Shown one piece after another: positions 1 through 34,057 of a DNA stretch of 49,024 nt. Under the pieces are notes generated by a model. It was not told where the DNA came from, ran no database searches, and saw nothing but the letters and a program-made list of their open reading frames with translations. Where the stretch lies: UHGV virus genome UHGV-0384005; one strand, given 5' to 3'. Position numbers and translations under genes: made by a program. Within the stretch, counting starts at the first letter, position 1; each line of letters starts with the position of its first letter. This stretch comes from a virus.

Positions 1-2460
1 ACTCTTACAGGAGCGGACGGTCACTACAGCATTGAGGCTGAGCCGGGTTATTACACTGTTTCACTGCTGCGGGAAGGTTTTCCTCCCTCCGTGGCCGGTG
101 ACATTTACGTGGTTCCGACCGATGCGCCGGATACCCTGAATGCGTTTCTCGATGCGCCGAAGGACGCGGACCTGCGTCCGGAGGTGATGAAACGCTTTGA
201 GGAAATGGTCAACCGCGTAGTGAATTTGAGCGGTGCAACAGAGAAGGATCGAGAACGCGCCGAGCAGGCCGCACAGTCAGCGGAACAAAGTAAGGATTCA
301 GCGGCATTGTCTGCAACGGCAGCGGCAGAGTCACAGCGCCAGGCTACACTCTCTGCAGATGCTGCTGATGCGTCAGCCCGCTCAGCTGCCGATAATGCCC
401 GACAGACAGCACAGGATGTTCTGGCTAGTGCAGCGGATGCTGATAGTGCGGCAAAGTCTGCACAGACAGCGACGGAGCAGGCCGGTCAGGCTAAAACCGC
501 CGCTGATACGGCACAGAAAGCGCAGGAGGAAGCGGGAGTCTCGGCACAGTCTGCTGCGGGAAGTGCCGAAAGTGCAGCTGCGTCAGCACAAACGGCGGGT
601 GAGCATGCCGGCAATGCAGCCGCATCTGAAACCTCAGCGCGTGAAAGTGCCTTCACGGCCACGCAGGCTGCAGAACAGGGTAATAACAGCGCGGCAGCTG
701 CAGCGCTAAGTGAACAGCATGCCAGAGAGTCCGGCGAAAAGGCTGCTAAATCAGAGGCTGCGGCATCAGCCAGTGCTAAATCAGCATCTTCAAGTGAAGC
801 ATCAGCCCTGCAGTCAGCCGAAACGGCTGAGAATCAGAAAAATGCAGCCACTGAGAGTGCCAACCGCGCAGAACAGGCCAGAGATGATGCACTGACCTCC
901 AGGAACGAGGCAGTACAAGCCGCTGAAACAGCAGCGACAGACGCGGCAGATAAAGCTGCAGGCAAGGTTTCGGATCAACTGAAAGCAGCTGTAGCCGATG
1001 ATACTCAGCGCGCAGAAGCCGCGATGGCTGGCGCTGAAAGTGCAGCTCTGGCCTCACAGGGATACCGTGATGAAGCGCGGGATATCGCTGAAGGTCTGAA
1101 GCTGGGAGACGCCAGCACAACGCAAAAAGGGCTGGTGAAGTTAAGCAGCGATGACGACAGCGACAGTGAAGCCCTTGCAGCGACACCGAAAGCCGTTAAA
1201 AAAGTCAAAGACCTGACGAAACTGAAAGCTCCGCTGGACAGTCCTGAGCTGACGGGAACGCCAACCACTCCTACGCCACCACTGACCGTTAACAACCAAC
1301 AAATTGTTAATGCTGAGTTTGTTCACGCAGCTGTTGCCGCGCTGGTTGGCTCATCTCCGGAAGCTTTGGACACCCTGGCTGAGTTAGCTAATGCCTTAAA
1401 CAATGATCCGAACTTTGCAACTACGGTGCTTAATGCGTTATCGGGTAAACAGCCTTTAGACGGTACGCTGACGAATCTGAGCGGAAAGGATGTTCCCGGG
1501 CTTATCCAATACCTTGGTTTAGTGGAAACGATAAAACTTGCTGCCGGAGCGCTGCCAACAACAGGAGGTAATTTACTTGGGCAGCTTGCTTTTTTGTTTC
1601 CAGCGACCAGAGCGGAAGCCAACTGCCTAATAGCGAACGGTGACGCTAACGGTATTCTGGCTTGCCAGTATGGTTATTATCAGGACAGATTTGACCTTCA
1701 TTTTTATGACGAAAAAGGTGCATGGGAATCAAATCCATTAGCCATAGGGCGTAATGGAAATATGACAGTCGTTGGTAATTTGTCGGGGCGTGCTGTTTTT
1801 GAAGGTGGCGTACGGGTTTATTCACCAAATAATCCCCCTCCTGACTCCTACCCTGTAGGTGCGCCAATTCCCTGGCCTTCAGACACGCCACCTGCTCGCC
1901 ATGCGATTATGCAGGGACAATCATTTGATAAGTCTGCCTATCCACTACTGGCTGTAGCTTATCCATCAGGCGTCATCCCTGATATGAGAGGGCAGACGAT
2001 AAAGGGCAAACCTGATGGTCGTGCTGTATTGTCGCAAGAACTTGATGGTATTAAGTCACACGACCATGGTGCGACGGTCGCAGCTACCGACCTCGGAAAC
2101 CGTGACACCACCGGATTTGATTACGGAAATAAAGAAACAACAGGTTTTGATTACGGTACAAAAACAACCGATGTTCAGGGTGCTCACGCGCACAATTACT
2201 CATTCCTGGCATGGCAAGCAGGTTGGGGATATCCAGCCGGAAACCAAAACATGGGGGCTGTCACGCAAACGACCTCCACTGACGGCGCTCATGCACACAA
2301 CGTTTATATAGGTGCACATAGTCATATTGTTGGCATTGGGGCACATGCCCACTCTGTCTATATTGGCGCGCACAGCCACGGTGTGACTGTTTCTCCGTCA
2401 GGTCATGCTGAAAACACCGTAAAAAATACCGCATTTAACTATATTGTGAGACTTGCATAA
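1..2460 (+). CDS. stf: Side tail fibre protein (lambda Stf-like), 5' end missing. Reading frame is open from nt 1 and continues the ORF at the window end (48905..49024).
   Basis: Frame open from nt 1 ([10 protein letters not shown]...). Carries the Ala-rich coiled-coil repeats, the [30 protein letters not shown] and GAHAH/GAHSH repeat motifs and the [12 protein letters not shown]-terminus that I recall from lambda Stf. Confidence 0.85.
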
Positions 2461-3044
2461 TGACTTTTAAAATGACTAACACCAATCGCACGATTACTAT
2501 TTATAACCTGTCATCTTCTACTAATGAATTTATTGGTAAAGGTGATGGATATATTCCAGCAAACACAGGATTACCTGCCTACAGTACTGATATTGCACCG
2601 CCAACTACAAAGGATGGATTTGTCGCTGTATTTAATTTTGATTCAGGTAAATGGTCACTCGTCGAAGACCATCGTGGGAAAGTTGTCTACGATATTCACA
2701 CAGGGGAATCCACCACAATTAACCAGTTAGGTAAGTTGCCTGATGATGTCGTTTCTGTTGCTCCTGAAGGCCATTTTGTTAAATGGGACGGTAAAAAGTG
2801 GGTGCATGATGCTGACTCAGAAAAAATAGCGCAGATTACGCAGGCGACACAACAAAAAGAAAGCCTACTGGCTCTGGCCGCCTCAAAAATCGCTCCCTTA
2901 CAGGACGCAGTTGATCTTGATATTGCAACAGAAGCGGAAGCGGCACTTTTGCTGGCGTGGAAAAAATACCGCGTTTTACTCAACCGCATAAATCCAAATG
3001 ATGCGCCAGATATTAACTGGCCGCCCATGCCAGACACAGAATAA
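2460..3044 (+). CDS. tfa: Tail fibre assembly protein (Tfa-like)
   Basis: 194 aa, starts at the stf stop (overlap). Same size and position as lambda Tfa; the conserved C-terminal region ends with a lambda Tfa-like C-terminus (...WPPMPDTE). Confidence 0.8.
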   Translation: MTFKMTNTNRTITIYNLSSSTNEFIGKGDGYIPANTGLPAYSTDIAPPTTKDGFVAVFNFDSGKWSLVEDHRGKVVYDIHTGESTTINQLGKLPDDVVSVAPEGHFVKWDGKKWVHDADSEKIAQITQATQQKESLLALAASKIAPLQDAVDLDIATEAEAALLLAWKKYRVLLNRINPNDAPDINWPPMPDTE

Positions 3045-3045
3045 G

Positions 3046-3555
3046 TTATTCTAATTTTTTTTTGAATACCGCAGGTGAGCCAGCATAGAGTGTATTAGGC
3101 AGAACATCACAATTTACAACGCTGTTAGCCGCCACGATGCTACCATCACCGATAGTTACTCCAGGAAAAATAACTGCTCCAGCACCGATCCAAACGTTAT
3201 TACCGATGTTTATTGGGTGCATTAACAATCTGTCGCATCTTTCTTTAGGAGATATTGGATGAGCAACTGTTGTTAGAGTTACATGTGGTCCAATGAAGGT
3301 ACTTTCACCGATAACTACCTGCGCATGATCTAAAATGACGCATCCTGAGTTTATGTAAGAGTTATTTCCTATCTGAATATTCCCTTTCTCAAAGAAAAAC
3401 GGAGGTCTGACAGTGAAGCTTCCATTCGTTTCTATACCAGCTTTAACGAGTATTCTGTTTTTCTTTTTTCTACTTGCTTGTGATGAATTGAAGAATACAG
3501 ATGCGGATACTGGAGAAACCTTTTTTTTAAGACTTAAGAACCAGTAAGTAAACAT
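3046..3555 (-). CDS. Hexapeptide-repeat (left-handed beta-helix) acetyltransferase, Maa/LacA-like. Probable moron.
   Basis: Repeated [LIV]G-x-x-x-x-[LIV] hexapeptides (IGNNVWIGAGAVIFPGVTIGDGSIVAANSVV). Sits in an AT-rich island, convergent with tfa. Confidence 0.7.
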   Translation of the reverse strand: MFTYWFLSLKKKVSPVSASVFFNSSQASRKKKNRILVKAGIETNGSFTVRPPFFFEKGNIQIGNNSYINSGCVILDHAQVVIGESTFIGPHVTLTTVAHPISPKERCDRLLMHPINIGNNVWIGAGAVIFPGVTIGDGSIVAANSVVNCDVLPNTLYAGSPAVFKKKLE

Positions 3556-3667
3556 AGTTGTAATTTAGCTCCTATCCTTGGTGTAACGTGCATTGCTGCA
3601 ATTTTTTCTATGCGTAATGTGGAGCAAAGACACACAGTGTTTATGCCCATCTCGAAAGCAGAGAGGA

Positions 3668-3711
3668 TAGCAGGTAATGCCTGTCAGTTGTTTAGCTAAC
3701 TGGCATTACCT
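3668..3711. repeat. Inverted repeat with 12-bp arms (GCAGGTAATGCC ... GGCATTACCTGC), just downstream of sopB
   Basis: Read directly from the sequence. No clear U-tract follows, so it may be a weak terminator or a protein-binding site. Confidence 0.5.
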
Positions 3712-3760
3712 GCGCTGGGTACTCATCAATAAAACTGAACGTACGTCAATACATTGAGTT

Positions 3761-4732
3761 TTAAGATTTGGTTTCACCAAGTTCGGCTTCCAGAAACGCT
3801 TCTATTTTTTTCATCAAACCAGAAGGTATTTTGCGGTTGTCTAACTTTAGGGTAACAAAATTCCCCTTGTATTTAGCGACAACGGCATCGCCATAAGTTT
3901 TCTCGGTTCTCGGTGGATCTTGCTTATCTATCAGGATTACGTCATGCAGAATCTGGATAATTCGAGCTGGCTCAAGAATCTCTCCGGCTCGCTTCATGTT
4001 CAGCAGCTGCCGCGCACCATCCAGCATAGCCTTCTCGTTAGCCTGGTAAACTTTGAATAAGTCGTTTCCGGCCCTGGCAGAGAGTTCCCCTGGATGCTGG
4101 AAGATAGCCAGAATCTCTTTTGGTAAGCCTGCTGTGTTGATACAGCGGGTTATGATATTTCTATCTATACCCTCTGCTTCTGCCAGAGCTTTTACGTTGC
4201 CATCAAAATCGTTCAGTCGACGTTGATATCTTTTTCCTCGCTCATATGCGCTGGTTGGGCGGTAGTCGTTACCGACTTGCGATAACCACTGCATTTGTTC
4301 ATCGTCTAACTCCCCGACTAACACACGGTAGTCAGTGCCGGTGATGATAGCTGTTTTGCGCCGACGCGAGCCGTCCGCAACTTCAATAATGCCTGAAATC
4401 TTGCGCGCGAACGCTGGGTTTTGCTGTCCTGATGTGATGAACGATGGAATCAGGTCCGCGAGTGCCGATTCGTTCAGCAATTCCTGATCGCGTTCGTTAC
4501 CCAGCCAGACCATTGTGGCCATTTCAACTTTATCTGCAGGAACGGTTTCCAGCTTGAATGTTACGTTGCGGCCACAAACGGGAAGTGTAATGCTGTTCCC
4601 TGATAGCGAACTAAGCTGGCGCTGCAAATCTCCTACCATTGGCGATACGGGCTGAGATTTTGGAGCGTGGTGTGTATTGCTCATAAATTTGTCGATATCG
4701 GGTGCATTTTTTAGCGGAGTGCGTTGTCTCAT
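3761..4732 (-). CDS. sopB: ParB-family centromere-binding partition protein SopB
   Basis: ITLPVCGR, GNERDQELL, GQQ.PAF, YRPTSAYERG and HPGELSA blocks shared with F SopB. The start was moved to the internal ATG (ORF track start: 4795), 2 nt after the sopA stop, with a GGAGGA RBS. Confidence 0.9.
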   Translation of the reverse strand: MRQRTPLKNAPDIDKFMSNTHHAPKSQPVSPMVGDLQRQLSSLSGNSITLPVCGRNVTFKLETVPADKVEMATMVWLGNERDQELLNESALADLIPSFITSGQQNPAFARKISGIIEVADGSRRRKTAIITGTDYRVLVGELDDEQMQWLSQVGNDYRPTSAYERGKRYQRRLNDFDGNVKALAEAEGIDRNIITRCINTAGLPKEILAIFQHPGELSARAGNDLFKVYQANEKAMLDGARQLLNMKRAGEILEPARIIQILHDVILIDKQDPPRTEKTYGDAVVAKYKGNFVTLKLDNRKIPSGLMKKIEAFLEAELGETKS

Positions 4733-4734
4733 TA

Positions 4735-5898
4735 TTAGTCCTCCCAACGTGGCTTGATCAAGTCGTCGAAAATTTCCATGCAGACAGGTTCCCAAATAGA
4801 TACCGCATTCCTCCAGGCATTCAGCGTTGACCGCTGGTTGGCGGCTTGTTCAAAAACGGTACGCATTTTTATTTGGCCTTTTCCTACCTCGTCTGTGACC
4901 CGTACTACCTGCCGCAATACCATCGCGCCCCAGGTATTTCGTATTTGTTCCTCCATCCATCTGGACTGATTTCCGTTAACCGTGCTGTATTTAGTCAGTA
5001 ACAAACGGACAGTAGGCTCGAATCCACCTAAATCAACGGTTTCCAGTAGGTCCAGCAGCATAGTGAAAAACTGAAGTACGGATGCGTAATCGAACAATTC
5101 AGCAGGTGTAGCGACAACGATTACATCAGCGGCACAAACGACATTAATAGTGCCGGTACCGAGGTTAGGAGCGCTGTCTATTACGATAATATCGTAGTTA
5201 TCCCATACAGATTCGATAGCGGCTCGAAGCATAAGGTGCGGAGGATGTGGTAATTTCCCCTGAGCATGATATTGCATCAAATCGGTTTCGATGCGATGCA
5301 GAGCTAGGCAACTAGGAATGATGTCCAGTCCTGGCCAGCAGGTAGGTTTTATAGCGTACTCTGCGTTGTCTCGTTCACCGAGATAAAATGGGAGCAAGGT
5401 ATCTTCTGCGTGGATATGTAAATCAGGAACATACCCATGATACATAGATGCTGTTCCTTGTGGATCATTCCCTTCGACAAGTAACACGCGGTGTCCCTGC
5501 AATGCCAGCCATTGCGCCTGGTGTACGGCAGACGAAGTTTTATAGACACCACCCTTATGTGACATTACGGAGAGAACAACAGGGTTCTTACTTTCCGGAC
5601 GTTGATTTGGATTACCAAAAACACTACGCATGTTGCTTATTTGGTCAATCGTGTATCCAGCACGGCGCTCTACTCTGCCGCGAGTTTCAAAATCAGGCGC
5701 AGGAAGACGCCCCGTTTTTTCAGCATCTCTTATTGCTTGCGGTGTAACCCCAATCAAGTCAGCAACTTCGGTAATTCCCCAGCGACGAGTAATGCGACGA
5801 GCTTCAGGGCTATCATCACCGAACTGAGCGATTGCTATGGCCTGAGTCATCTCCTGACCACGTCTGATACACTCATGTAACAAATTGATAAGCGACAT
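4735..5898 (-). CDS. sopA: Type Ia ParA ATPase SopA
   Basis: Near-colinear with F SopA: N-terminal HTH, Walker A KGGVYKTS, LLVEGNDPQGTASMYHGYVPDLHIHAEDTLLPFYLGE. The start was moved to MSLINLL... (ORF track start: 5982; the first 28 codons lie in the operator region). Confidence 0.9.
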   Translation of the reverse strand: MSLINLLHECIRRGQEMTQAIAIAQFGDDSPEARRITRRWGITEVADLIGVTPQAIRDAEKTGRLPAPDFETRGRVERRAGYTIDQISNMRSVFGNPNQRPESKNPVVLSVMSHKGGVYKTSSAVHQAQWLALQGHRVLLVEGNDPQGTASMYHGYVPDLHIHAEDTLLPFYLGERDNAEYAIKPTCWPGLDIIPSCLALHRIETDLMQYHAQGKLPHPPHLMLRAAIESVWDNYDIIVIDSAPNLGTGTINVVCAADVIVVATPAELFDYASVLQFFTMLLDLLETVDLGGFEPTVRLLLTKYSTVNGNQSRWMEEQIRNTWGAMVLRQVVRVTDEVGKGQIKMRTVFEQAANQRSTLNAWRNAVSIWEPVCMEIFDDLIKPRWED

Positions 5899-5944
5899 TC
5901 TGTATCCTCTCTTATGAGCGTTTTTCTTTGCGTTATTTATATCA

Positions 5945-6003
5945 CTTTGCTTAAAAAAAGCAAAGTTTCGTAAAAAAAGCAAAGCTTAATGAAAAAAGCA
6001 AAG
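5945..6003. promoter_or_regulatory. sopAB promoter/operator: CTTTGC hexamer as the palindrome CTTTGCTT-A6-AGCAAAG, plus two more AAAAAAGCAAAG direct repeats
   Basis: CTTTGC/GCAAAG occurs four times in 60 bp upstream of sopA. F SopA autoregulates through CTTTGC repeats. Confidence 0.55.
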
Positions 6004-6270
6004 CTAAAAATTTAACCACCTGGCTAAGCGTTTTGTGACGCAACCCAAGTCTTATTGTGAGAAATGAGTCGGTCACTTTGATAGGATTTAATCTAAACAT
6101 ATGTTTTTAAATGATATTTTATAAATCAAAACCCCTCCATTCTTTAATGAAACATACGAATTCCCACCTTCATTTTATGATCGTTATCACATTACTCACT
6201 AACCAAAACAAATAATCACACAAGTAGAGATCGTAAAATCAATGATTTGTTTATCAATGTGAAAACGAGA

Positions 6271-6360
6271 TTATCATAACACAATCGAACAAGTCAACGC
6301 ATCATAACACAATCAGATCACCAAAGATAACACAATTGGGATTTATCATAACATGTATAT
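6271..6360. repeat. Left flank of the telomere-resolution site: TCATAACACAAT repeats. Direct copies at ~6274, 6302, 6327 (partial) and 6346; the last is part of a CATAACAT-gtat-ATGTTATG palindrome.
   Basis: Read directly from the sequence. Confidence 0.6.
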
Positions 6361-6366
6361 GTTATG

Positions 6367-6422
6367 TATCAACACACAATTGCCCATTATACGCGCGTAT
6401 AATGGGTAATTGTGTGCTGATT
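6367..6422. other. telRL: Uncut telRL-type telomere resolution site. 56-bp near-perfect palindrome TATCAACACACAATTGCCCATTATACGCG|CGCGTATAATGGGTAATTGTGTGCTGATTA, centred at 6394/6395.
   Basis: 22-bp arms with one mismatch. Matches my recollection of the N15 telRL sequence (central TACGCGCGTA telO) in all but a few positions. Lies immediately upstream of the protelomerase gene. Confidence 0.8.
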
Positions 6423-6559
6423 ATCATAACACAGTCCAACATTGATTTGAATACCAAATTGAATTGTGTTATCTTGTTATTGTGTGATAGTGTTATCATA
6501 AATCACTTAAACTATTGTACTTTGATTGTGTTATCTTTCTCTTATTGTGTTATGATAAT
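6418..6559. repeat. Right flank of the tel site. One direct TTATCATAACACA copy, then inverted copies (ATTGTGTTATC at ~6462, 6526; ATTGTGTTATGATAA at 6545 is the exact reverse complement of the left repeat).
   Basis: Read directly from the sequence. The arrangement mirrors the left flank, giving extended dyad symmetry around telRL. Confidence 0.6.
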
Positions 6560-6582
6560 TGAAGGGCTAAAACAGGAGAGCC

Positions 6583-8502
6583 ATGATGAGCAAAGTAAAG
6601 ATTGGTGAACTTATTAATTCGCTTGTGAAAGAGGTTGAGACAATCGACGCCTCTGATCGCCCGCAGGGTGATAAAACAAAAAAAATTAAAGCAGCAGCAA
6701 TAAAATATAAAAACGCATTATTTAATGATAAAAGAAAATTTCGTGGGAAAGGTTTATCAAAAAGAATAACAGCAAACACCTTTAATGCTTATATGAGCCG
6801 CGCAAGAAAGCGCTTTGATGATAAACTTCATCATAGTTTTGAAAGTAATATAAATAGGTTGTCAGGAAAGTATCCTTTATATAGTGAGGAATTATCTTCA
6901 TGGCTAGCTATGCCTGCTGCATCTATTCGCCAGAATATGTCAGCATTGCAAAGTAAATTAAAATCAATAATGCCTTTAGCAGAAGAATTATCAAGTTTGA
7001 AACTTGGGGCGAAAAACAGTGAGGCAAAAATAACAAAACTTGCTAATAAATATCCTGAGTGGAGTTTTGCTATTAGTGATTTAAACAGTGATAACTGGAA
7101 AGATAGTCGGGACTATCTTTATAAGCTATTCCAACAAGGTTCCTCCCTTTTAGAAGAGTTAAACCATCTCAAGGTCAACCATGAGGTGTTGTATCACCTA
7201 CAGCTCAGTTCTGCTGAGCGAGCATCTATCCAGCAGCGCTGGGCAGACGTCCTCAGTGAGAAAAAGCGCAGCGTGGTTGTGATTGACTATCCTCGCTATA
7301 TGCAGGCCATATACGACATTATCAATAAACCATTAGCATCATTCGATTTAACTACTCGTCGTGGTATGGCTCCATTGGCTTTCGCACTTGCCGCATTATC
7401 CGGGCGCAGGATGATAGAAATAATGCTTCAGGGTGAGTTTTCTGTTTCTGGAAGATATACAGTTAACTTTATAGGACAAGCTAAAAAACGCTCTGAAGAC
7501 AAAGGTACATCAAGAAATATATATACACTATGCGATGCAAAGTTATTCGTTGAGTTAGTTTATGAACTTCGCTCCTGTCCTGCTGCTGCCGACTTCAATG
7601 AAGTTATTAAAGGGTATGGTGAAAATGACACACGTTCTGAAAATGCCAGAATTAATGCTATTCTCGCAACAGCTTTTAATCCGTGGGTAAAATCTTTTTT
7701 AGGTGATGACCGTCGCGTTTATAAAGATAGCCGCGCTATTTATGCACGTATCGCCTATGAAATGTTTTTCCGCGTCGACCCTCGGTGGAAAAATGTCGAT
7801 GAAGACGTTTTCTTTATGGAGATACTCGGTCATGACGACGAGAACACCCAGCTACACTACAAACAGTTTAAATTAGCGAACTTTTCCAGAACCTGGAGGC
7901 CGGATGTTGGTGAAGAAAATACCCGGCTTGCGGCTCTACAGAAGCTGGATGAAGAGATGCCAGGCTTCGCCAGAGGTGATGCCGGTATCCGTATTCATGA
8001 AGCTGTGAAGCAGCTGGTGGAGCAAGATCCCGATATAAAAATTACCAACAGCACTTTGCGCCCTTATAACTTCAGCACCAGAATGATCTCCCGCTATCTG
8101 GAGTTTGCTGCTGATGCTTTAGGCCAGGTCGTAGGCGAAAACGGACAATGGCAACTGAAAACAGAAGCACCCGCTATCATACTGAATGATGAAGAAGAAA
8201 CAGTACCGGTGGAAGAGCAGGATATAGGCGAAGAATCCCTGGAAGAAGACGATCTGGATGAGGATGAAATCGACCTGGATGAAGGCGAAACAGAGGAAGC
8301 TGGAGATAAGCCTGGCGACACCGATGATATCGCCTCAGAGGAAAGCAAGCCCGTGAAGCCAGTATTTAAAGCCCCCAGGGATAACGGTGATGGAACGTTT
8401 ATGGTGGAGTTTGAATATGATGGTCGCCAGTATGCCTGGAGCGGCGCTGCCGATAGTAAGCTAATGGCCATGCAGGCCGCGTGGAAAACATACTTCAAGT
8501 AA
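6583..8502 (+). CDS. telN: Protelomerase (telomere resolvase, TelN/TelK family)
   Basis: 639 aa. Near-colinear with N15 TelN as I recall it (MSKVKIGELIN..., YSEELSSWL, KVNHEVLYHLQLS, GMAPLAFALAA.SGRRMIEIM, RSENARINAIL, HDDENTQLHYKQFKLANFSRTWRP) and an acidic C-terminal tail. Confidence 0.95.
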   Translation: MMSKVKIGELINSLVKEVETIDASDRPQGDKTKKIKAAAIKYKNALFNDKRKFRGKGLSKRITANTFNAYMSRARKRFDDKLHHSFESNINRLSGKYPLYSEELSSWLAMPAASIRQNMSALQSKLKSIMPLAEELSSLKLGAKNSEAKITKLANKYPEWSFAISDLNSDNWKDSRDYLYKLFQQGSSLLEELNHLKVNHEVLYHLQLSSAERASIQQRWADVLSEKKRSVVVIDYPRYMQAIYDIINKPLASFDLTTRRGMAPLAFALAALSGRRMIEIMLQGEFSVSGRYTVNFIGQAKKRSEDKGTSRNIYTLCDAKLFVELVYELRSCPAAADFNEVIKGYGENDTRSENARINAILATAFNPWVKSFLGDDRRVYKDSRAIYARIAYEMFFRVDPRWKNVDEDVFFMEILGHDDENTQLHYKQFKLANFSRTWRPDVGEENTRLAALQKLDEEMPGFARGDAGIRIHEAVKQLVEQDPDIKITNSTLRPYNFSTRMISRYLEFAADALGQVVGENGQWQLKTEAPAIILNDEEETVPVEEQDIGEESLEEDDLDEDEIDLDEGETEEAGDKPGDTDDIASEESKPVKPVFKAPRDNGDGTFMVEFEYDGRQYAWSGAADSKLMAMQAAWKTYFK

Positions 8503-8509
8503 CAGAAAA

Positions 8510-8540
8510 GCCACTGGTGTTTACCAGTGGCTCAATTTTA
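8510..8540 (+). terminator. Stem-loop GCCACTGGT-gttt-ACCAGTGGC plus a weak U-tract after telN
   Basis: Read directly from the sequence. Confidence 0.4.
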
Positions 8541-8674
8541 GTGGCCTGTCCCTGCCCGTTCCCTGCAAGAAACGGAAGGATGAGGCGGGAACCGCAGCTG
8601 CAACAACAGACATCGCCGTCCCGACTGCAGGGACTTCCCCGCCAGGGCGGGGCATAAACTCGGGCTGGCCAGCC

Positions 8675-9448
8675 CTATTTATCAGCGACTGCAGGTGCCG
8701 CTAATTTTGCAGATAACGCCTCAAGTTTCTCGATGGCCAGCACGAAATGAGCAGGTAAAACCTTTTCCTCCGGCGTACTGATATCGGTGATCGGTAACTC
8801 TTTATGGGACATGCTCCGGCGACCGCCACGAACAACATCACGCAATAATTCCCGCTCACAAGCTCTCATGTTCTCCAGCGCGACTTCCGCCGCCGTGAGT
8901 ATCCTCCGCAGTTCGGCAGCTATCGCTGGGATATCATCAACTGTAATCGGATTGGGCGCCGGGTTTCTGCATGCGCGGCGCAACGCCATCCAAACCCCAC
9001 TTACCCATGCATTACGGTATTGAAAGCTCTGCGCTATATCGTTAATCAGTCCTCGCAGTTCCTCTTTCTGTCGCCAGTTCAACGGCTCACCAGCGCATTT
9101 TGGAACGGGTTCTACATAGCCATATTCACCATTCTTCCGGATAGCTGGCAGCACCTCGTTCGTTACCCACTTGCGGAATCGCCACGCGGTGGTTCCATGC
9201 TTTACTGCATCGCGGCAGCGGAGGATCAGGGTGTAGAGGCCGGATTCGTTGATGATATTGGCTTCACCCTGACGACCTATGTTAAACATAGACCGCTCAT
9301 CATCGTCCAATCGTGCGATAGCCTGCGTAACATTCTGGATATTTAAGGCAGTGCAAATGTCATTTGCCACAAACCACGGCTCACCATCAACCATCACCAC
9401 GCGTACCGGGTGGTTTTCCTGAAATGAAAATACGGCAAGAGCGCTCAT
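8675..9448 (-). CDS. Antirepressor with an N-terminal Bro-N domain
   Basis: FSFQENHPVRVVMVDGEPWFVANDICTALNI...INESGLYTLILRCRDAVKHGTTAWRFRKWVTNEVLPAIRKNGEYG matches the Bro-N/Ant consensus. Last gene of a minus-strand operon. Confidence 0.8.
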   Translation of the reverse strand: MSALAVFSFQENHPVRVVMVDGEPWFVANDICTALNIQNVTQAIARLDDDERSMFNIGRQGEANIINESGLYTLILRCRDAVKHGTTAWRFRKWVTNEVLPAIRKNGEYGYVEPVPKCAGEPLNWRQKEELRGLINDIAQSFQYRNAWVSGVWMALRRACRNPAPNPITVDDIPAIAAELRRILTAAEVALENMRACERELLRDVVRGGRRSMSHKELPITDISTPEEKVLPAHFVLAIEKLEALSAKLAAPAVADK

Positions 9449-9675
9449 TCTCCCCCCTTATCATTCAGTTGTTCCGACAGGGACAGCGAGCAGCCTCGCG
9501 CTTCCTGTGTCAGTTCGCGAGCGACGATAAGGAGTTTGGCAGCCTCCTGCATATATAGCGATGCTTCATAACTGGAGATTGTGCGGTGGACTGATGATAC
9601 CAGTGCTTCTACTTGCGCCAGGCGCTCGTCAATCAGCTCCAGATGGCCCTGGATATTTAGCTGTACCTGATTCAT
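9445..9675 (-). CDS. Hypothetical protein of the antirepressor operon, coiled-coil-like. Start overlaps the upstream gene.
   Basis: 76-aa ORF, translationally coupled on both sides. Confidence 0.5.
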   Translation of the reverse strand: MNQVQLNIQGHLELIDERLAQVEALVSSVHRTISSYEASLYMQEAAKLLIVARELTQEARGCSLSLSEQLNDKGGE

Positions 9676-9836
9676 ACGGCTACCCCGCTAACCGGGATAC
9701 GGGCAGACAGAACGAGCACAAAGCGGCTGGCAAACTGGCGACGGGCTTCCCGTTCGGACGGGGCGATCGTGGTCAGTTGATGAATATGGGATTTTTTATC
9801 TGTGCGGACGACTGCCGCGAAAGTGAATTTGAACAT
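9672..9836 (-). CDS. Small leading ORF of the ant operon (MFKFTFAAVV...), in the icd-like position
   Basis: Internal ATG of ORF 9672..10001; the 5' part of that ORF is the structured leader/sRNA region. Confidence 0.35.
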   Translation of the reverse strand: MFKFTFAAVVRTDKKSHIHQLTTIAPSEREARRQFASRFVLVLSARIPVSGVAV

Positions 9837-9997
9837 GGTGCACACTCCAGTTTGGTTATGGGTGCTACCACCAGAGTTCTCACGCTCTAAGGGGTGGTAG
9901 CCCAGACGGGGGTGAGAATACCGGCCCAAACGACACCGGCCAGCCTTTCGGCTGCCCCGCCTGGGCCACCATAATTCAGGTGTGCGCAGGCACTGAC

Positions 9998-10095
9998 ACA
10001 AAAAAACACGCTGGCGCGTGTTGTGCGCGTTTGGGGATTCGGGTTCTCACGCCCGGCTGCGGATTTTGCCGCAACGCGCTAACTCTACCGTCCAA
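9998..10095 (-). ncRNA. Candidate c4/CA-like antisense regulatory RNA at the head of the antirepressor operon
   Basis: Minus-strand promoter-like TTGACG-18-TAGAGT (~10111..10082). Several stem-loops. An intrinsic terminator (ACACGC-tggc-GCGTGT + U7) ends near 10000. The motif GTGAGAAC recurs twice downstream in the mRNA leader (9877-9886, and a complementary UUCUCAC at ~9913). Confidence 0.4.
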
Positions 10096-10133
10096 ACGTC
10101 ACGCACGTCAATAATTTAAGTCAATATTTTACC

Positions 10134-10149
10134 CTGTGACCAGTCACAG
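10134..10149. promoter_or_regulatory. LexA-box-like palindrome CTGTGACCAGTCACAG (CTGT-N8-ACAG) upstream of the ant-operon sRNA promoter. Also a member of the GTGAC-NN-GTCAC family.
   Basis: Sequence match to the CTGT-N8-ACAG frame. The centre is GC-rich, unlike the canonical AT-rich boxes. Confidence 0.35.
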
Positions 10150-10182
10150 GAACAGGTGTTTTTATAGTTTACTTTACTTTGA

Positions 10183-10821
10183 TTGGTAGGAAAAACATCA
10201 TATACATCATATAATAACCACATTCTTATAGGTGTTATGTCTGGAGTTCGTAAAATGGATTTGTTGACTTGTTTTCTATTTGTACTTTCTGAAAAAGCAA
10301 GTGATTTAAAAGAGTATTGGAGAATAGAAGTTATCCGTAAAGATAAGTTTTCGTGGCGAAGATTATTAGCCAGAAAGAGTGACCGGAACCGTAAATTTCT
10401 CTTCTGGTGGCGTCTGGCCAATGAGATGTACCTACAAGGTTCCAGGCACCAGAGAAAGGTCGCTACAAAGATTCAGGATAAGCTAAAAAACGCATATGCA
10501 GCTGACATAGAGTTGGGATTAACTGTAGGCTCCGGGCTAACCATACACCACCACACAGGCATTGTGATTTACCACAAGGCAATTATTGGGAAAAACTTTA
10601 CCATCCGTCAAAATACCACGATAGGTGGAGTTCAGGGCATGGATGAAAACGAGCGAATGGTTATTGGTGATAACGTCGACATCGGTGCTAATTCATGTCT
10701 GGTTGGTCGATTTCATATTGGTGATAATGTCACTGTCGGCGCTATGTCTTTTGTGAATAAAGATATACCAGCCAATAGCACTTACATTTGTCGTAAAAAT
10801 CCAACCATTAAACAAAAGTAA
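10183..10821 (+). CDS. Hexapeptide-repeat acetyltransferase (CysE/WcaB-like). Moron in an AT-rich island; start codon uncertain (M1/M19/M25).
   Basis: LbH repeats IGKNFTIRQNTTIGGV...IGDNVDIGANSCLVGRFHIGDNVTVGAMSFV. Confidence 0.65.
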   Translation: MVGKTSYTSYNNHILIGVMSGVRKMDLLTCFLFVLSEKASDLKEYWRIEVIRKDKFSWRRLLARKSDRNRKFLFWWRLANEMYLQGSRHQRKVATKIQDKLKNAYAADIELGLTVGSGLTIHHHTGIVIYHKAIIGKNFTIRQNTTIGGVQGMDENERMVIGDNVDIGANSCLVGRFHIGDNVTVGAMSFVNKDIPANSTYICRKNPTIKQK

Positions 10822-10897
10822 AATGTATACGATTACTATCGGCTGATAGCAAAAAAAGTAATTAAGCCGGTGGGATTATCACCTCCGGCCTTAAACA

Positions 10898-11233
10898 CTA
10901 TCTCAGCCCCGTAATGCGGCTAATGAATTCTCCCACCTTCGACGTTGACTCAAAACCCATACGCCCACGGATGAGCCACTGAAAAGGGATTGTCAGCAAG
11001 TACAGCGGAACGAACCACAAACGGTTCAGGCGCTGCCAGAACGTCCCGTCACTGCACTCCATCCACTCGGTATTGTCGACAACCTGATAAGCAAAATGGC
11101 TGCGCTCATCCTCCAGACGGCCACCACACAAAAAGCTGGTAATTTCTTCATAGTTTTCGAAGCCTTCATCCTTCAGCTTCTTTTCCAACTGATAACGGTG
11201 GAGTACAGGTACCCATCCTCTGCGGTAAATCAT
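10898..11233 (-). CDS. Hypothetical protein (111 aa)
   Basis: ORF at the distal end of the repA-downstream minus-strand gene string; its start overlaps the upstream ORF's stop. Confidence 0.5.
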   Translation of the reverse strand: MIYRRGWVPVLHRYQLEKKLKDEGFENYEEITSFLCGGRLEDERSHFAYQVVDNTEWMECSDGTFWQRLNRLWFVPLYLLTIPFQWLIRGRMGFESTSKVGEFISRITGLR

Positions 11234-11751
11234 GATTTAGATCTCCTGTATTTCGGTGCAACGGCCAGCGCCCTTTTCCAGGCAAGGGAATAACTATCAG
11301 CTGCTGATAGAGCGCTCTCCATCTCCAGCGTGATCTCTTTCGGCACCAGTTGCCAACCAGCTGGTTCCACCGGTAATGGCGTCAGATCCACTTCTTCCAG
11401 CCTTTTCTCAAAACACACATCGTCAAAATACTTCTGCTCAACTTTCAACTCAAAGTCATTCAGCGTCATTTCTACAGGTCTGATACCGTAAAGCAGGGTA
11501 CCTTTATTCATATCAAACCTTTCCGTTCCTTCTTTGGTCCCTGCATCTTCCAGAACAGATTTAGCTATGTCAGAAAAACAAATCGCGGCACACCGAAAAT
11601 CGGCAAAAGCCCGGTGCTCTCCCCACTCAGTGACGACATAAACAACACGTGTAGGGCCGCTGGCGCGGCGCTTAATTTCGAGATCAATATCTCGCTTAAG
11701 CTCGTCCAGTTCGTAGTCATTTAACTTGTTAACGCTAATATCCATCGCCAA
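11230..11751 (-). CDS. Hypothetical protein (173 aa)
   Basis: Translationally coupled ORF downstream of repA. Confidence 0.55.
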   Translation of the reverse strand: MAMDISVNKLNDYELDELKRDIDLEIKRRASGPTRVVYVVTEWGEHRAFADFRCAAICFSDIAKSVLEDAGTKEGTERFDMNKGTLLYGIRPVEMTLNDFELKVEQKYFDDVCFEKRLEEVDLTPLPVEPAGWQLVPKEITLEMESALSAADSYSLAWKRALAVAPKYRRSKS

Positions 11752-12078
11752 TCACCCCCACTGGCCATCAGCGAATAAAGCGTTGTACTCCGACAACGGC
11801 AGGCGCTGGCCCTCGATGTAAATATTCAGTTCGTAACGTGTCTCCGGGTTTTCTTTATCGGCATCTGCCCAGCGTTCAGCAGCTGCTGCAGCAAGACATT
11901 CGACCGCCTTCGGGTAGTCCTCTGTTCGAAACCAGCCAAAGTTGATCCCGCCATCAGTCACAGCCCAGGCCACCTTTTTTTCTTCTTCCTGAATGGCCCT
12001 GATTCGTGCCTCGCACTCATCGCGGCAAAACTTCAACTGGTCATAGTCCAGACTGTCTAAATAGTTAGTTGTCGACAT
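11752..12078 (-). CDS. Hypothetical protein (108 aa)
   Basis: Translationally coupled ORF downstream of repA. Confidence 0.55.
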   Translation of the reverse strand: MSTTNYLDSLDYDQLKFCRDECEARIRAIQEEEKKVAWAVTDGGINFGWFRTEDYPKAVECLAAAAAERWADADKENPETRYELNIYIEGQRLPLSEYNALFADGQWG

Positions 12079-12271
12079 TTTTCCGATCCCCGTTCATCCG
12101 TAATTCCCGATATACCCGCTGCCACATTCGGTAGTTGTGCGCAAATGCTTCTCCACGAAATAAGGCCCGACGAACCCTGCTACCCTCCCGAAGATATAAC
12201 CTGGTCCGGTAATCAAACCATTGCTGGAAGATAAACAGCACAACCACAACTAACAGCGCCAAACTACCCAT
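12065..12271 (-). CDS. Small hydrophobic protein (about 68 aa, MGSLALLVVVVLFIF...), starts at the repA stop
   Basis: Internal ATG of ORF 12065..12388; the N-terminal part of that ORF overlaps repA. Confidence 0.35.
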   Translation of the reverse strand: MGSLALLVVVVLFIFQQWFDYRTRLYLREGSRVRRALFRGEAFAHNYRMWQRVYRELRMNGDRKNVDN

Positions 12272-15200
12272 AGAACGCCTCCGGCGCATCGTAGCCGCCT
12301 GTAGCCATTCCAGTGATGTATTCGCGCAGTCTCCGCAGTTCGTTGCTGGAGAGGCGATCCATAAACTCTGTGAGGTACAGGGAGGCAAAGGTCATCGCGA
12401 TGCTGGCTGGCGACCAGGTATTCATTGTGGCCAGCTCATCGTCGGACAGCGCGGTCATAGCCCAGGCCTCCGGAACAGGCACCGGCAACGTGGCCAGAGC
12501 CTCAGATATTACTGAATGAGGGGCGTCCAGATTCTGCCCGTCTGTGGATCGTGTTTTATGATCCATATATATATTGAGATCCAAACCGTGATCCACTTCG
12601 GTGGCCTTCTTATCGCCCTTATGCAATTGCAGGGACAGGCCGTCTTCCTGGCGGTTCTCCAGGATTTCCATCATGAACGCTGCCGACTCTGGATCAACGA
12701 AGCGGATGGTTGGGCGTTTGTCTCCCTCCCTGGCGCGGCGCTTGTCGGTCTTCAGGCCGAGTGATTCGCAAATGTTTTTAAACAGCGCCTCCGGGACCTT
12801 TGGCTTGCCTTTCGGTGTCATAAAGCCACCAATGCGCAGGACGTTGTTTAACAGGTCGCGCCGTTCGTCTGTCATGAGTTTATCCCTAGCATACTTCATC
12901 CTCGCCTGGGTGGCCTCTCCGGTCATTGTCTCCGGGTCGATACCGCAGTCGATGAAATACTGGCGCAGCGCTGCGGATTTAAGCGCGTAGAACCCGCGCA
13001 TGCCGACTTCAACCGCAGGCGTTGCTTTCACTTTGTAGTCGGTAATACCCGGATGCTTGGCCTGGAATGCTTCATCCGCCTGCTCACGCGTCATGGCCGT
13101 GACAACAAAATATTGCCACTGGCCTGTCTGTTTAAAGGCGTAGGTAAAGTTGATCGCCGATTCTTCGCGGTCATAGCGTCGTGCCGTGACCTCATCGAGC
13201 AGCATGGTTTCGTAGCGGCGAACTTTATCCCGAGCGCCGTCGAAGTAGAATTTCAGGTTGTCTTCGTTAACCGGAATTTTTAACTCGTTCTCAATATCCC
13301 AGCGGACCAGCTTCGCCTGCTCCTCCAGCGTCAGCGCCCGTTTTTTCAGGATTTCCTCGCGTTCTGATTCGTCGGGTGTCTCAATATTCAGATGCAGATC
13401 CAGCGTCTGTTCCCATACGATTTCTCTGGCTTCCTTACGCAGCTCCTTGCCGATAGAGTTCGCCAGTTCGTCAGATGCCAGGGGGGCGACTTTATAGCCA
13501 TCGCTGTGCATGATGCAGATCATATTGCAGGCGTAGTCATTACGTGCCGAGGCTTCTATCGCTGCAGCCTTGATTTTCATCCTGGTGAAATCGGTGTTGG
13601 CCACACCCATTGAAATGCGATCACCATCAAACACAACGTCCGTCACTTCGCCATTCATGCCAGCAGTGGCCAGCAGAGCCTGGGCGAATGCGCGTTCGAT
13701 TTTTTTCGGGTCTGTCTCGCGTTTTGCCCGGACCTTATCAAAGCCGATAATGAATTCTTTAGCGGTACGGTCGCGGCGCAACATCTGGATAGCATCGCTG
13801 GGGACTACTTCGCCGCAGAACATGCCGAAGTGGCGATCAAAGTGTTTTTGTTCAATGGATACGCCAGAAGATATGGATGGGCTGTAAATCAGGCCATCGT
13901 ATTTTTTGACCATCTGTTTTGGCTTATTGGTGAACGCTTCAACCTCTGGCTCCGGTTTACTTTTCTGGTTCACACAAAGGAATTTTTTCTCCGGATAACG
14001 CTGGCGCAGCGTGGCCGTCACGTCCTCCGCAAATGTCGAACTGTCGGTCGCCAGCATGATTTTTTCACCGAGTTCCACCGCCTTAATAACCTCGGTCATA
14101 ATGCGATCCTTCTCGGTATAGAAGACGCGGATAGGTTCTCCGGTTTCGCGGTTGCGAACGTCGACCGGCAATTCGATAACATGAATCTGCAGCCATGCTG
14201 GCAGGCCCATTTCCTCGCGGCGTTTCATTGCCAGTTCTGCCAGGTCAACCAGCAGGTCGTTGGCATCGGCATCCACCATAATGGGGTGCAATTCTGTTCT
14301 GGCCAGCGCGTCGATTAGGGTATTGAAAACGGCAACCGGGTTTTCCATCGCCTTACCTGAAAGAATGGCGCGTAGCCCTTGCGTGGCTTCATCAAATCCA
14401 AAATAGTCGTGCTGGCGCATCAATGGCTGCCAGCAGCCTTTGACGATGGAGTTTATGCAGATAGTCAGCTTATTAGCGTATGGGGCCATTTCCTGATAAC
14501 CAGGATCCTGATAATGCAGAATGTCAGCTTTTGCGCCTTTCTTCTCTGTCATCATTTCCCATAAGCCACCGATAAGGCTTACCCTGTGAGCCACGGAAAC
14601 GCCACGGTCCGCGTCATGCATCAATGGGCGTAACAGGCCTGTCGATTTTCCCGACCCCATGCCGGCACGAACAATCACGATTCCCTGCAGCTGTTGCACG
14701 TACTGCAGAACCTCTTCGGTCATGACTGACGTTTCAAAGCGTTTATACGTGATGTGCTGGGGCCGTTTATTGGGATCGGTAATGCGGTCACTGAAGGAAC
14801 GCGGAGCCTGCGCGGTGCGGCATTTACGGTTAAGGCGACGGGCAATGTGGTCTTTTATCGTTGCGCGGTAAACGTTCTCCAGATCCATTTCCCGCAGAAC
14901 GATGCAGAACATTTTAAACAGGTCCGATGGGCTGTTCGGTACCGGGCATGTGAGCATGCCGATATCCACCGCCTGCAGCAGCTCTTTCGCGAACGTTCGA
15001 CGGTTGTCCCGCTTAATGGTTTTCAGCTTGTTAAGCGTGAGTGTAAGTAAATCTGTGCTGGTACTCAGGCGGTTTGCCTTGCCGAACAACTGGCGAGTTG
15101 TTTCCCGCAGGCCGCGTAATTTGTGCAGGTCGTTGAAGTCGCTGCACTCCAGCTGGGGATCATCTTCGAAAATGGGGTAAACGCATTTTATGCCGTTAAA

Positions 15201-16268
15201 TTTCGCGATGATTTCGTAGCCAGTGCGCAGGCCTGTGTTGCCTTTCCCTTCCGCTGATGATTTGCGGTCGTTATCCAGTGTGCAGGTAATTTTTGCGGCC
15301 GGGTACAGGTTCACCAGCTGCTCAACAACATGAATCATGTTATTTGCCGATACGGCGACAACTACGGCATCAAAGCGCTTTTTCGGATCCTTTCTAGTCG
15401 CCAGCCATACTGATGCGCCTGTTGCGAAGCCTTCGGCTACCGCGATATTTTGCGCGCCTTTCAGGTTGCCGATCACGAAGCAGGAACCCACGAAATCACC
15501 GGTGATGACGGCGTTGGTCTGAAATTTACCGCCACGCTTATCAATACGCTGCCAGCCGACTATTTGCCCGTCTTTGCGCCCGTCCAGATGGGACAGAGGG
15601 ATAGCCATATAAGTGGTTGGCCCGCTGCTCCATCTGGCGCTATCGTGACTGGTCACGCGACGTACATCACACGCGCTAAATACGTCACGAATGCCTTTTT
15701 TCACAGCGTAAGGCCATGAACCGTCCTCAGCAGGCGCATGCTCCCAGGCGTGATGGAATGCAAGCCAGCCAAGCAAACGCTCATGGTCTAATTGGTTGTT
15801 TCGTAAGTCATTAATGCGTTGCTGTTCGGCGCGGCGTCTGCGGGCTTCTGCCTGGCGTTCGATGCGGGCGCGTTCTTCTGCTGGCTGTGCGACCACGGTC
15901 GCATGATTTTTTTGTTGGTCACGGCGGTACTCGGAGAAAAGGAAGGAAAACCCACTCCAGGAACCAGCATCACTGCCCTTCTGGACAAAGTTTATAAAGG
16001 GGTAGCTGATGCCGTCTTTGCTGTGTTCCAGGCGCGAATAGATTTCGACGCGGCCTTTGAGGCTCTTTTCCAGTGCTTCTGGCGAAGGGCCATTATAGGT
16101 GGAATAGCGTTCCTGTCCGCCGCGCGGATTCAACTGGATGTTATCAGCACAGGCTGGCCAGTTAATGCCAGCCATCTTTGCCAGCTCTGTTAGCTCATCC
16201 CGTGCAGCTTCAAGCAATGAGAACGGATCGCTGCCAAAGCGATCCGCATAGAATTCTTGTAAGGTCAT
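12264..16268 (-). CDS. repA: Multifunctional replication protein RepA (primase-helicase), N15 RepA-like
   Basis: 1334 aa. Walker A GMGSGKST. Its size and position (between the tel/ant region and cB) match N15 RepA, which I recall as about 1324 aa. Confidence 0.9.
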   Translation of the reverse strand: MTLQEFYADRFGSDPFSLLEAARDELTELAKMAGINWPACADNIQLNPRGGQERYSTYNGPSPEALEKSLKGRVEIYSRLEHSKDGISYPFINFVQKGSDAGSWSGFSFLFSEYRRDQQKNHATVVAQPAEERARIERQAEARRRRAEQQRINDLRNNQLDHERLLGWLAFHHAWEHAPAEDGSWPYAVKKGIRDVFSACDVRRVTSHDSARWSSGPTTYMAIPLSHLDGRKDGQIVGWQRIDKRGGKFQTNAVITGDFVGSCFVIGNLKGAQNIAVAEGFATGASVWLATRKDPKKRFDAVVVAVSANNMIHVVEQLVNLYPAAKITCTLDNDRKSSAEGKGNTGLRTGYEIIAKFNGIKCVYPIFEDDPQLECSDFNDLHKLRGLRETTRQLFGKANRLSTSTDLLTLTLNKLKTIKRDNRRTFAKELLQAVDIGMLTCPVPNSPSDLFKMFCIVLREMDLENVYRATIKDHIARRLNRKCRTAQAPRSFSDRITDPNKRPQHITYKRFETSVMTEEVLQYVQQLQGIVIVRAGMGSGKSTGLLRPLMHDADRGVSVAHRVSLIGGLWEMMTEKKGAKADILHYQDPGYQEMAPYANKLTICINSIVKGCWQPLMRQHDYFGFDEATQGLRAILSGKAMENPVAVFNTLIDALARTELHPIMVDADANDLLVDLAELAMKRREEMGLPAWLQIHVIELPVDVRNRETGEPIRVFYTEKDRIMTEVIKAVELGEKIMLATDSSTFAEDVTATLRQRYPEKKFLCVNQKSKPEPEVEAFTNKPKQMVKKYDGLIYSPSISSGVSIEQKHFDRHFGMFCGEVVPSDAIQMLRRDRTAKEFIIGFDKVRAKRETDPKKIERAFAQALLATAGMNGEVTDVVFDGDRISMGVANTDFTRMKIKAAAIEASARNDYACNMICIMHSDGYKVAPLASDELANSIGKELRKEAREIVWEQTLDLHLNIETPDESEREEILKKRALTLEEQAKLVRWDIENELKIPVNEDNLKFYFDGARDKVRRYETMLLDEVTARRYDREESAINFTYAFKQTGQWQYFVVTAMTREQADEAFQAKHPGITDYKVKATPAVEVGMRGFYALKSAALRQYFIDCGIDPETMTGEATQARMKYARDKLMTDERRDLLNNVLRIGGFMTPKGKPKVPEALFKNICESLGLKTDKRRAREGDKRPTIRFVDPESAAFMMEILENRQEDGLSLQLHKGDKKATEVDHGLDLNIYMDHKTRSTDGQNLDAPHSVISEALATLPVPVPEAWAMTALSDDELATMNTWSPASIAMTFASLYLTEFMDRLSSNELRRLREYITGMATGGYDAPEAFYG
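15644..15657. repeat. Palindrome CGTGACTGGTCACG (family GTGAC-NN-GTCAC), inside repA
   Basis: Identical 14-mer at 22759. Related site at 10134. Confidence 0.35.
15887..15904. repeat. SopB-box-like palindrome GTGCGACCACGGTCGCAt, one arm mismatch, inside repA coding sequence
   Basis: Member of a 5-copy family resembling the F sopC core TGGGACCACGGTCCCA. Confidence 0.55.
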
Positions 16269-16391
16269 TTTTTAGCCTTTCCATGCGAATTATGTTTTTT
16301 TCGGGTTGAAAAAATCCGCAGGAGCAGCCACAATAAACGCACGATCTTCTGAAGGATGCGGTGCTGGTTTTGTGGGTGCTGCTCCTGAAAA

Positions 16392-16421
16392 AGGCCCGAG
16401 TTTGCCGACTCGGGTTTTTTT
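16392..16421. terminator. Bidirectional intrinsic terminator (CCCGAGT-ttgccg-ACTCGGG, A5 upstream and T8 downstream) between cB and the repA promoter region
   Basis: Read directly from the sequence. Confidence 0.5.
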
Positions 16422-16518
16422 TCGTCTTTTTTTCGGCTGCCGCAATCTGATTCAACCGCGATAAATTATAGATCGCATTAAACCAGATTTATAGGCAGCA
16501 ATAAACCCCGTTATTCTT

Positions 16519-17127: not shown

Positions 17128-17138
17128 AAATGATCTGT

Positions 17139-17202
17139 TTATAGCTGGCTATAAAATTTATAAATTATACCTGGCTTTAATTTGAAGTTATTGGTTATAA
17201 TA
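17139..17202. promoter_or_regulatory. Candidate CB operators in the cB-cro intergenic region. Perfect palindrome TTATAGC-tg-GCTATAA (17139-17154) and two degenerate copies (~17165-17180, ~17187-17202).
   Basis: Read directly from the sequence. The tripartite layout is typical of OR regions. Confidence 0.45.
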
Positions 17203-17207
17203 ATTTT

Positions 17208-30842: not shown

Positions 30843-30868
30843 TTGGGACTTTAGTCCCTTTTTTATGG

Positions 30869-34025: not shown

Positions 34026-34057
34026 AGCAATTCTTCATCATTATTACAGGCTGACTA

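Follow-up and report, generated by a model that had tools for sequence, protein, structure and literature searches.

UHGV virus genome UHGV-0384005, a stretch of 49,024 nucleotides (nt) referred to here as the window, very probably carries a functional telomere resolution module of the N15/phiKO2 type; from the sequence evidence we put the probability at about 0.93. The module comprises a 56-base-pair (bp) telomere resolution site, telRL, and the downstream gene for a protelomerase of the TelN/TelK family (Table 1). The identities of the protein and the site, their conservation and the purifying selection on the enzyme are established, as is, indirectly, the position of the telomere in relatives.

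The telRL site

The dyad is centred at 6394/6395 with no spacer, and its arms (6368-6394 and 6395-6421) pair at 25 of 27 positions. The 49-kb window has just this one: a search there for a second palindrome of like quality found none, the next best centre reaching only 19/27 and the maxima over 20 shuffles 16-19. The central TACGCGCGTA is likewise present once in the window. The dyad centre lies 191 nt 5' of the ATG at 6586, between sopA and the protelomerase gene, a gene order shared with N15 and phiKO2, and 6367-6422 is identical to N15 telRL at 51 of 56 positions. These values bear out the original prediction of an uncut 56-bp palindrome with the N15 telRL core about 190 bp upstream of the gene. 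The perfect palindrome at its centre, telO, also turns up in 37 stretches of IMG/VR and in one contig of Pseudocitrobacter. The outer 14-bp inverted repeats, TATCAGCACACAAT and ATTGTGTGCTGATA, are both present with one substitution each (A at 6372 on the left, T at 6422 on the right). A 56-bp site alone is sufficient for processing (PMC3540006).

All known protelomerases cut 6 bp apart, and CGCGCG is the inter-scissile sequence of the TelK site (PMC3558466). Homology would place the cut positions on this site on either side of 6392-6397. In the N15 record the repeat is annotated 'cut site for prophage formation; cut at 24802/3', which aligns to 6394/6395 of the window. We note that Enterobacter phage MStein-2023a (CP115603.1) has only a 55-bp telRL (3625-3679, 92.7%) in common with the query by megablast, with no match to the protelomerase gene; the site is therefore conserved beyond gene similarity detectable at the DNA level.

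The protelomerase

The open reading frame 6583-8502 on the plus strand is open for 639 residues, the length originally predicted. The ATG at 6586 appears the likelier start, giving 638 residues, since gene calls in the source contig and in RefSeq relatives, alignment of Met1 to that of N15 TelN and the spacing from the Shine-Dalgarno sequence all agree on it. The protein matches four Pfam TelK models with E values of 1e-23 to 1e-55, far over the gathering cut-offs. The crystallised phiKO2 TelK chain (PDB 2v6e_A) aligns to residues 2-538 at E=0. The protein shares 82% identity with full-length TelK and 76% with TelN of N15; the assignment to the TelN/TelK family made from the letters alone is thus confirmed. 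Four segments, GRRMIEIM, GQAKKRSEDKG, VYKDSRAIYARIAYEMFF and ILGHDDENTQLHYKQFKLANF, are identical to TelK, and R276, K301, R384, H417 and Y426 (639-residue numbering) fall within such segments. We take these five to be the TelK active-site residues R275, K300, R383, H416 and Y425, the tyrosine nucleophile included, as reportedly described by Aihara et al. 2007. The equivalent set in TelA is R255, K286, Y363, R366, H394 and Y405 (PMC3558466).

The ratio of nonsynonymous to synonymous substitution rates (dN/dS) against three relatives is 0.06-0.07 overall, about 0.05 in the core and about 0.2 in the acidic C-terminal tail. The protelomerase is under strong purifying selection. The exact 638-residue protein is GenBank AXZ46007.1, 'protelomerase (plasmid) [Citrobacter freundii]', and is present on 35 contigs. 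The product of 6586-8499 falls in a 90%-identity protein cluster of 73 members from C. freundii, C. braakii, C. portucalensis and several serovars of Salmonella enterica. With proteins at least 90% identical annotated in S. enterica, C. braakii and C. portucalensis, the telomere-phage lineage is seen, on protein similarity, to reach across several enterobacterial genera.

The telomere in related assemblies

The linear GenBank record of Klebsiella phage NAR688 stops exactly at the base homologous to 6395. The 37 IMG/VR stretches with telO (L012-L048) fall into three classes. About 13 have the telRL form, with different left (L) and right (R) flanks. About nine are perfect fold-back palindromes, L/L or R/R, that reach at least 143-200 nt; in one (L014) the whole 13,664-bp contig is a single palindrome centred on telO. 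About 15 stop 11-99 nt past the centre, all but one of these within 11-51 nt. Hairpin ends give rise in assemblies to just these fold-back and contig-end patterns. Two protelomerase matches each are present in several PLSDB records of 70-110 kb, possibly through the same fold-back artefact. These signs of resolution at the dyad centre are indirect and come from relatives; in the window's own lineage the sole sign is the switch in relatedness at the centre, described below.

Table 1. Coordinates of the features discussed, in window positions unless residues are stated
Feature	Position	Strand	Remarks
telRL, 56-bp telomere resolution site	6367-6422		left arm 6367-6394, right arm 6395-6422
telO, 22-bp perfect palindrome CCATTATACGCGCGTATAATGG	6384-6405		invariant in the window, N15, phiKO2 and two Citrobacter plasmids
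CGCGCG between predicted scissile phosphates	6392-6397		dyad axis; predicted hairpin tips at 6394/6395
telN/telK-type protelomerase gene	6586-8502	+	638 residues; alternative ATG at 6583 gives 639
Shine-Dalgarno AGGAGA	6574-6579	+	AGGAG 6574-6578, 7 nt 5' of ATG 6586
TelK_N	residues 5-79		Pfam
TelK_muzzle	residues 82-199		Pfam
ResT-TelK_cat	residues 262-429		Pfam
TelK_stirrup	residues 445-535		Pfam
Three left repeats	6272-6285, 6300-6313, 6323-6336	+	core ATAACACAAT at 6276, 6304, 6327; face the dyad
Five right repeats	6463-6472, 6479-6488, 6487-6496, 6525-6534, 6544-6553	-	face the dyad; between telRL and telN (6463-6556)
Repeat copy TATCATAACACAGT	6422-6435 (core 6426-6435)	+	direct orientation, faces off the dyad, adjoins right arm
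Degenerate repeat pair ATAACAT / ATGTTAT	6343-6366		adjoins left arm; read from sequence
Candidate extended -10 for telN (TGtTATGATAAT)	6548-6559	+	inside last right repeat; from sequence only
L-terminal variable cassette	5900-6394		sopA-tel intergenic region with left repeats and left arm
Bidirectional terminator-like hairpin 3' of telN	8509-8532		both strands in terminator scan
sopB, ParB-like partition protein	3761-4732	-	PHROG 1146, E=9e-114; Pfam SoPB_HTH; left (L) arm
sopA, ParA-like partition ATPase	4735-5898	-	PHROG 164, E=2e-105; last gene before left telomere
TGCGACCACGGTCGCA copies	15888-15903, 18331-18346, 24688-24703, 28988-29003, 36686-36701		

Asymmetries between the arms

Counted outwards from the centre, the arms mismatch at position 13 (6382 G / 6407 T), position 23 (6372 A / 6417 C) and position 28 (6367 T / 6422 T). 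Past position 28 the left and right sides are still related, about 2 nt out of register. Two of the asymmetries had been predicted and are present, namely the A at 6372 and an 'extra T', which is the T/T at position 28; the mismatch 6382/6407 had been missed. A telRL identical to that of the window occurs in two independent assemblies, ERZ28588593 and GCA_045196885.1. On this comparison the A at 6372 is no sequencing error; it is a recurrent natural variant.

The same 638-residue enzyme occurs with a different left arm (TATCAGCACACAATTATCC...) in C. freundii AR_0116 and in GCA_052187455.1. The unique arms are hypervariable at positions 13-14, and 6 of 23 left arms carry the equivalent of the A at 6372. 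It had been suggested that the small asymmetries could set the efficiency of cutting by TelN. Because one enzyme naturally pairs with two left arms and positions 13-14 are hypervariable, they look like tolerated natural variation, and any effect on cutting would be hypothetical. Since replication yields telLL and telRR junctions that are perfectly symmetric, differences between left and right would count in one step alone, the single telRL event at lysogenisation. We also note that the G-to-A change at 6372 converts CTGATA to TTGATA on the minus strand. This TTGATA and TG-TATGAT (6345-6352) together make a promoter-like site matching at 10 of 12 positions (6345-6372, minus strand), which points from the left telRL arm to sopA.

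Flanking repeats

Nine copies of ATAACACAAT, at no more than one mismatch, occur in the 49-kb window against 3.3 expected by chance, and all lie inside 6276-6553. That they are mere common AT-rich words was rejected, there being no copy outside this interval. The repeats had been predicted as direct on the left and inverted on the right. This holds for the three left copies and for five of the six on the right; the sixth, with its core at 6426-6435, is direct and faces off the dyad. It is kept in Citrobacter relatives and phiKO2 but not in N15, and is mirrored, about 2 nt out of register, by the degenerate pair that adjoins the left arm. Over the 14 positions of the outer telRL arm TATCAGCACACAAT, the extended motif TATCATAACACAAT matches at 12. 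A looser search with the 14-mer, at three mismatches, gave 9 matches against 4.65 expected, which is not significant alone.

Citrobacter relatives have their repeats at the same offsets from the centre (-119, -91, -68, +31, +68, +92, +130, +149); phiKO2 shares several of these and N15 one, +149. When 23 unique L arms and 29 unique R arms of public contigs are aligned, conserved patches mark the repeat columns, and the spacers between them vary. N15 has further repeats in its flanking DNA, the wider tos region, and TelN stays on the finished hairpins, shielding them from SbcCD (PMC12624138). The repeats of the window are most likely auxiliary protelomerase binding sites. Between them the arrays cover the DNA upstream of both genes, the right one the 160 bp before telN and the left one the stretch before sopA, and occupancy could therefore affect expression, possibly feeding back on both the sopA and telN operons.

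The block holding the candidate extended -10 element of telN is conserved in all five aligned relatives. A sigma-70 promoter scan gave no plus-strand site between telRL and the ATG and no -35 match for 6548-6559. Promoter-like matches in the region are not above expectation (9 against 7.1 +/- 2.3 in shuffles). The TGnTATGAT element is therefore only a suggestion. The papers searched gave nothing usable on a telN promoter, on autoregulation or on the definition of the tos repeats.

A switch in relatedness at the resolution point

When the window is compared with the AR_0116 plasmid, 103 differences are found to the left within 5900-6394, the nearest of them at position 12 from the centre. To the right the first difference is 3,699 nt from the centre, and there are four differences in more than 11 kb. 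The plasmid of Citrobacter RHBSTW-00524 keeps the left cassette of the window and departs from the window over some 150-200 right-terminal nt, where 50-nt bins are 80-92% identical. In the Klebsiella-type pair L028/L031 the L side is 99-100% identical over 1.5 kb and the R side 80-92%, starting at position 13. Several further contig pairs are discordant between their L and R sides.

We tentatively suggest that telomere-proximal segments reassort independently, with a mosaic boundary at the resolution point itself, although we rate the odds as somewhat against it. Such a switch is expected if recombination takes place between linear molecules that end there, a single crossover swapping a whole end. 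Alternatively, the protelomerase could join the L end of one phage to the R end of another when telRL re-forms, or double crossovers could use the conserved core as an island of homology. No description of relatedness switching at the resolution point was found in the papers searched. If independent reassortment is true, each telomere would carry its flanking repeat array along as an end-specific cassette, and the switch would be a population-genetic footprint of linear topology.

Physical form and alternative readings

Nucleotides 1-18,502 of the window are identical to the ENA contig ERZ1744672 NODE_51_length_49079_cov_98, which has the protelomerase gene at the same coordinates. The end and start of the window are contiguous in a relative (a single 3,459-nt alignment over the junction). 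Judged from these alignments, the window is a circularly permuted complete element, opened in the tail-fibre gene. It has neither cos nor tel at either end; the physical form of the sample is therefore not readable from this circularised assembly. A true circle needs both a cos and a tel junction, and no single canonical form, virion or prophage, has both, so that the assembly must be a composite of forms. The tel site had been described as being in its uncut, virion or replicative-intermediate configuration. It is indeed uncut as written, with sopA-side and telN-side DNA flanking the dyad. The replicative-intermediate part does not stand, since intermediates of the linear plasmid carry telLL and telRR, and telRL belongs to virion or freshly circularised DNA (PMC10612081).

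Some observations weigh against a functional module that yields linear prophages. The substitution at 6372 lies in the outer left arm and is absent from N15 and phiKO2. The contigs found for the window's own lineage are all of the telRL form and none ends at the telomere, in a look-up that collapses similar places. Both the window and the relatives closest to it are assemblies closed into circles, and two of these relatives, NZ_CP032182.1 and NZ_CP056423.1, are labelled circular in RefSeq. In the PY54/P840 system the flanking inverted repeat is dispensable for processing in vivo (PMC10612081).

The circular labels, the contiguity of the window's two ends in a relative and the internal telRL of all inspected contigs of about 49 kb with the exact protein could together mean that the module is inactive and the element is kept as an ordinary circular plasmid. 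We consider this very improbable. The frame is intact with a dN/dS of about 0.06, as is the dyad, and 'circular' labels in the N15 group have been judged probable annotation errors (PMC7969092). Related assemblies carry the fold-back and contig-end signatures at the dyad centre, and relatedness switches at that centre within the lineage, as expected of a physical end. The reading as a decayed module or circular plasmid is thus rejected on selection and comparative grounds. A different possibility is that telRL is not the dominant form in the sample, which would consist mostly of hairpin-ended prophage, the circle having been closed through a minority of telRL reads from spontaneously released virions or through a mis-join. 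The source is a SPAdes-style NODE contig of 49,079 bp, 55 nt longer than the window, the difference expected from trimming a k-mer overlap; the composite nature of the circle also fits. Nevertheless, a perfect palindrome of only 24 bp is common to the L and R arms, so that bridging at k=55 without real telRL reads would be improbable, and the same telRL was assembled independently in three samples. We therefore regard this account of the sample as unlikely, if worth keeping in mind.

The ATAACACAAT repeats might instead be operators or promoter elements of another regulator, for instance in SopA/SopB autoregulation, or belong to divergent sopA/telN promoters. They occupy both intergenic regions, minus-strand promoter-like hexamers overlap them (6372 to 6345 and 6297 to 6270), and TGnTATGAT lies inside the last right repeat. 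Set against this are the match of the motif to the outer telRL arm at 12 of 14 positions, the convergence of the copies on the dyad and the frequency of promoter-like matches, no higher than in shuffles. This explanation of the repeats is rather improbable, and a regulatory role would in any case be compatible with a role as protelomerase sites.

Proposed mechanism

For the preferred reading, a functional telomere resolution module, we infer how the enzyme acts on this site and where precisely it cuts by homology with TelK and TelN; what the repeats do is likewise inferred. On infection the cos-ended phage DNA would circularise. A dimer of the 638-residue protelomerase would then bind the 56-bp telRL and cut both strands 6 bp apart, either side of the CGCGCG at 6392-6397, through a 3'-phosphotyrosine intermediate. 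The self-complementary CGCGCG overhangs would fold back and be resealed to give two hairpins (the cut-and-fold mechanism is taken from PMC3558466 and the life cycle from PMC10612081). The product would be a linear plasmid prophage with hairpin tips at 6394 (telL, sopA side) and 6395 (telR, telN side). Whenever RepA-driven replication had produced the perfectly symmetric junctions telLL and telRR, this enzyme would resolve them as well. The converging repeats would serve to load the protelomerase and to hold it both on the site and on the completed telomeres; arm-like sites arrayed beside each end would fit the retention of TelN on hairpins (PMC12624138).

Comparison with known systems

The TelK protein of phiKO2 has the same order of parts as the enzyme described here: TelK_N, muzzle, catalytic and stirrup domains, an acidic linker and a small C-terminal domain. 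Its identity is higher across the crystallised 538 residues than the 82% found overall. The two elements share telO, the CGCGCG centre and a neighbourhood of sopBA, telRL, the tel gene, a bidirectional terminator and antB-antA-icd; in phiKO2 a 'putative bidirectional' terminator is annotated at the position matching the hairpin 3' of telN. Flanking repeats of phiKO2 are found at the matching offsets -122, -47, +92, +130 and +149. The DNA is only about 78% identical, and the arms differ at positions 13-18 and 23-26. The host genus of phiKO2 is Klebsiella, whereas the element in the window belongs to Citrobacter.

N15 resembles the window in TelN (76%), in telRL (51/56), in the order sopBA-telRL-telN and in a plasmid arm with RepA, CB, Cro and Q. 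It differs in the spacer, TGC/ACT as against TGC/GTA in the window, and in having G where the window has A at 6372. Its flanking repeats have diverged, with only the +149 copy matching the motif. The AR_0116 plasmid encodes an identical protelomerase, but the 500 bp or so to the left of its dyad, left arm included, are only 66-78% identical, and its tail-fibre region is unlike that of the window. Yersinia phage PY54 shares the central TACGCGCGTA and the overall logic (PMC3540006) but has a 42-bp perfect palindrome and a different flanking inverted repeat. Its tel is more distant, reported as about 60% identical to N15 telN.

Context of the element

The genes of the plasmid arm were identified from PHROG matches, Pfam searches of the gene calls and the annotation of a 99%-identical relative, in which sopA is so named. 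The arm encodes SopA and SopB, a 1334-residue RepA primase-helicase, a CB-like repressor, Cro and Q (immB cB-cro-Q) and an anti-repressor locus (immA antA-icd-antB). A 16-bp palindrome, TGCGACCACGGTCGCA, is present in five identical dispersed copies against 0.17 expected. These copies resemble the dispersed SopB centromere sites reported for N15.

The siphovirus morphogenesis and packaging set is complete (terminase, portal, protease, capsid, tape measure and homologues of L, K, I and J), in the same gene order as in annotated relatives. The claim that sopAB, repA, cB/cro and lambda-like tails place the element in the N15/phiKO2 family is upheld by PHROG, Pfam and the annotation of the relative. 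At 30408-36669, judged from the annotated relatives, a P27 small terminase, an HNH endonuclease, an HK97-type portal, an S49 protease and a capsid gene are joined to the lambda-like tail genes. Two hexapeptide-repeat acetyltransferase genes, 3046-3555 (minus strand) and 10255-10821 (plus strand), flank the sop-tel-ant block in the plasmid and immunity region. One is DapH/GlmU-like and the other serine acetyltransferase-like; they may be accessory cargo genes. The tail-fibre frame 91-2460 forms the 3' portion of a gene whose start lies near the window end (48865-49024). Divergence from AR_0116 is greatest in this gene and onwards to about 2900, which is consistent with variation in host range.

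DNA identity to C. freundii AR_0116 plasmid unnamed4 (NZ_CP032182.1) is 99.1% over 26 kb, with the same gene order. Pfeifer et al. 2021 list one C. freundii member of the N15 group and consider the 'circular' labels of such records to be probable errors (PMC7969092). The AR_0116 plasmid is probably that single member.

Significance

Work on N15 and phiKO2 has made the system, its structure and its chemistry textbook knowledge, and GenBank already names the exact protein. The main value of the finding is therefore correct annotation: the element is an N15-group telomere phage-plasmid of Citrobacter, to be treated as linear and not circular, with the ends of the prophage predicted at 6394/6395. 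Anyone engineering TelN/TelK substrates can draw on the natural telRL arm variants catalogued here, which are paired with identical or near-identical enzymes. The switch in relatedness at the telomere could become a read-free test of linear topology.

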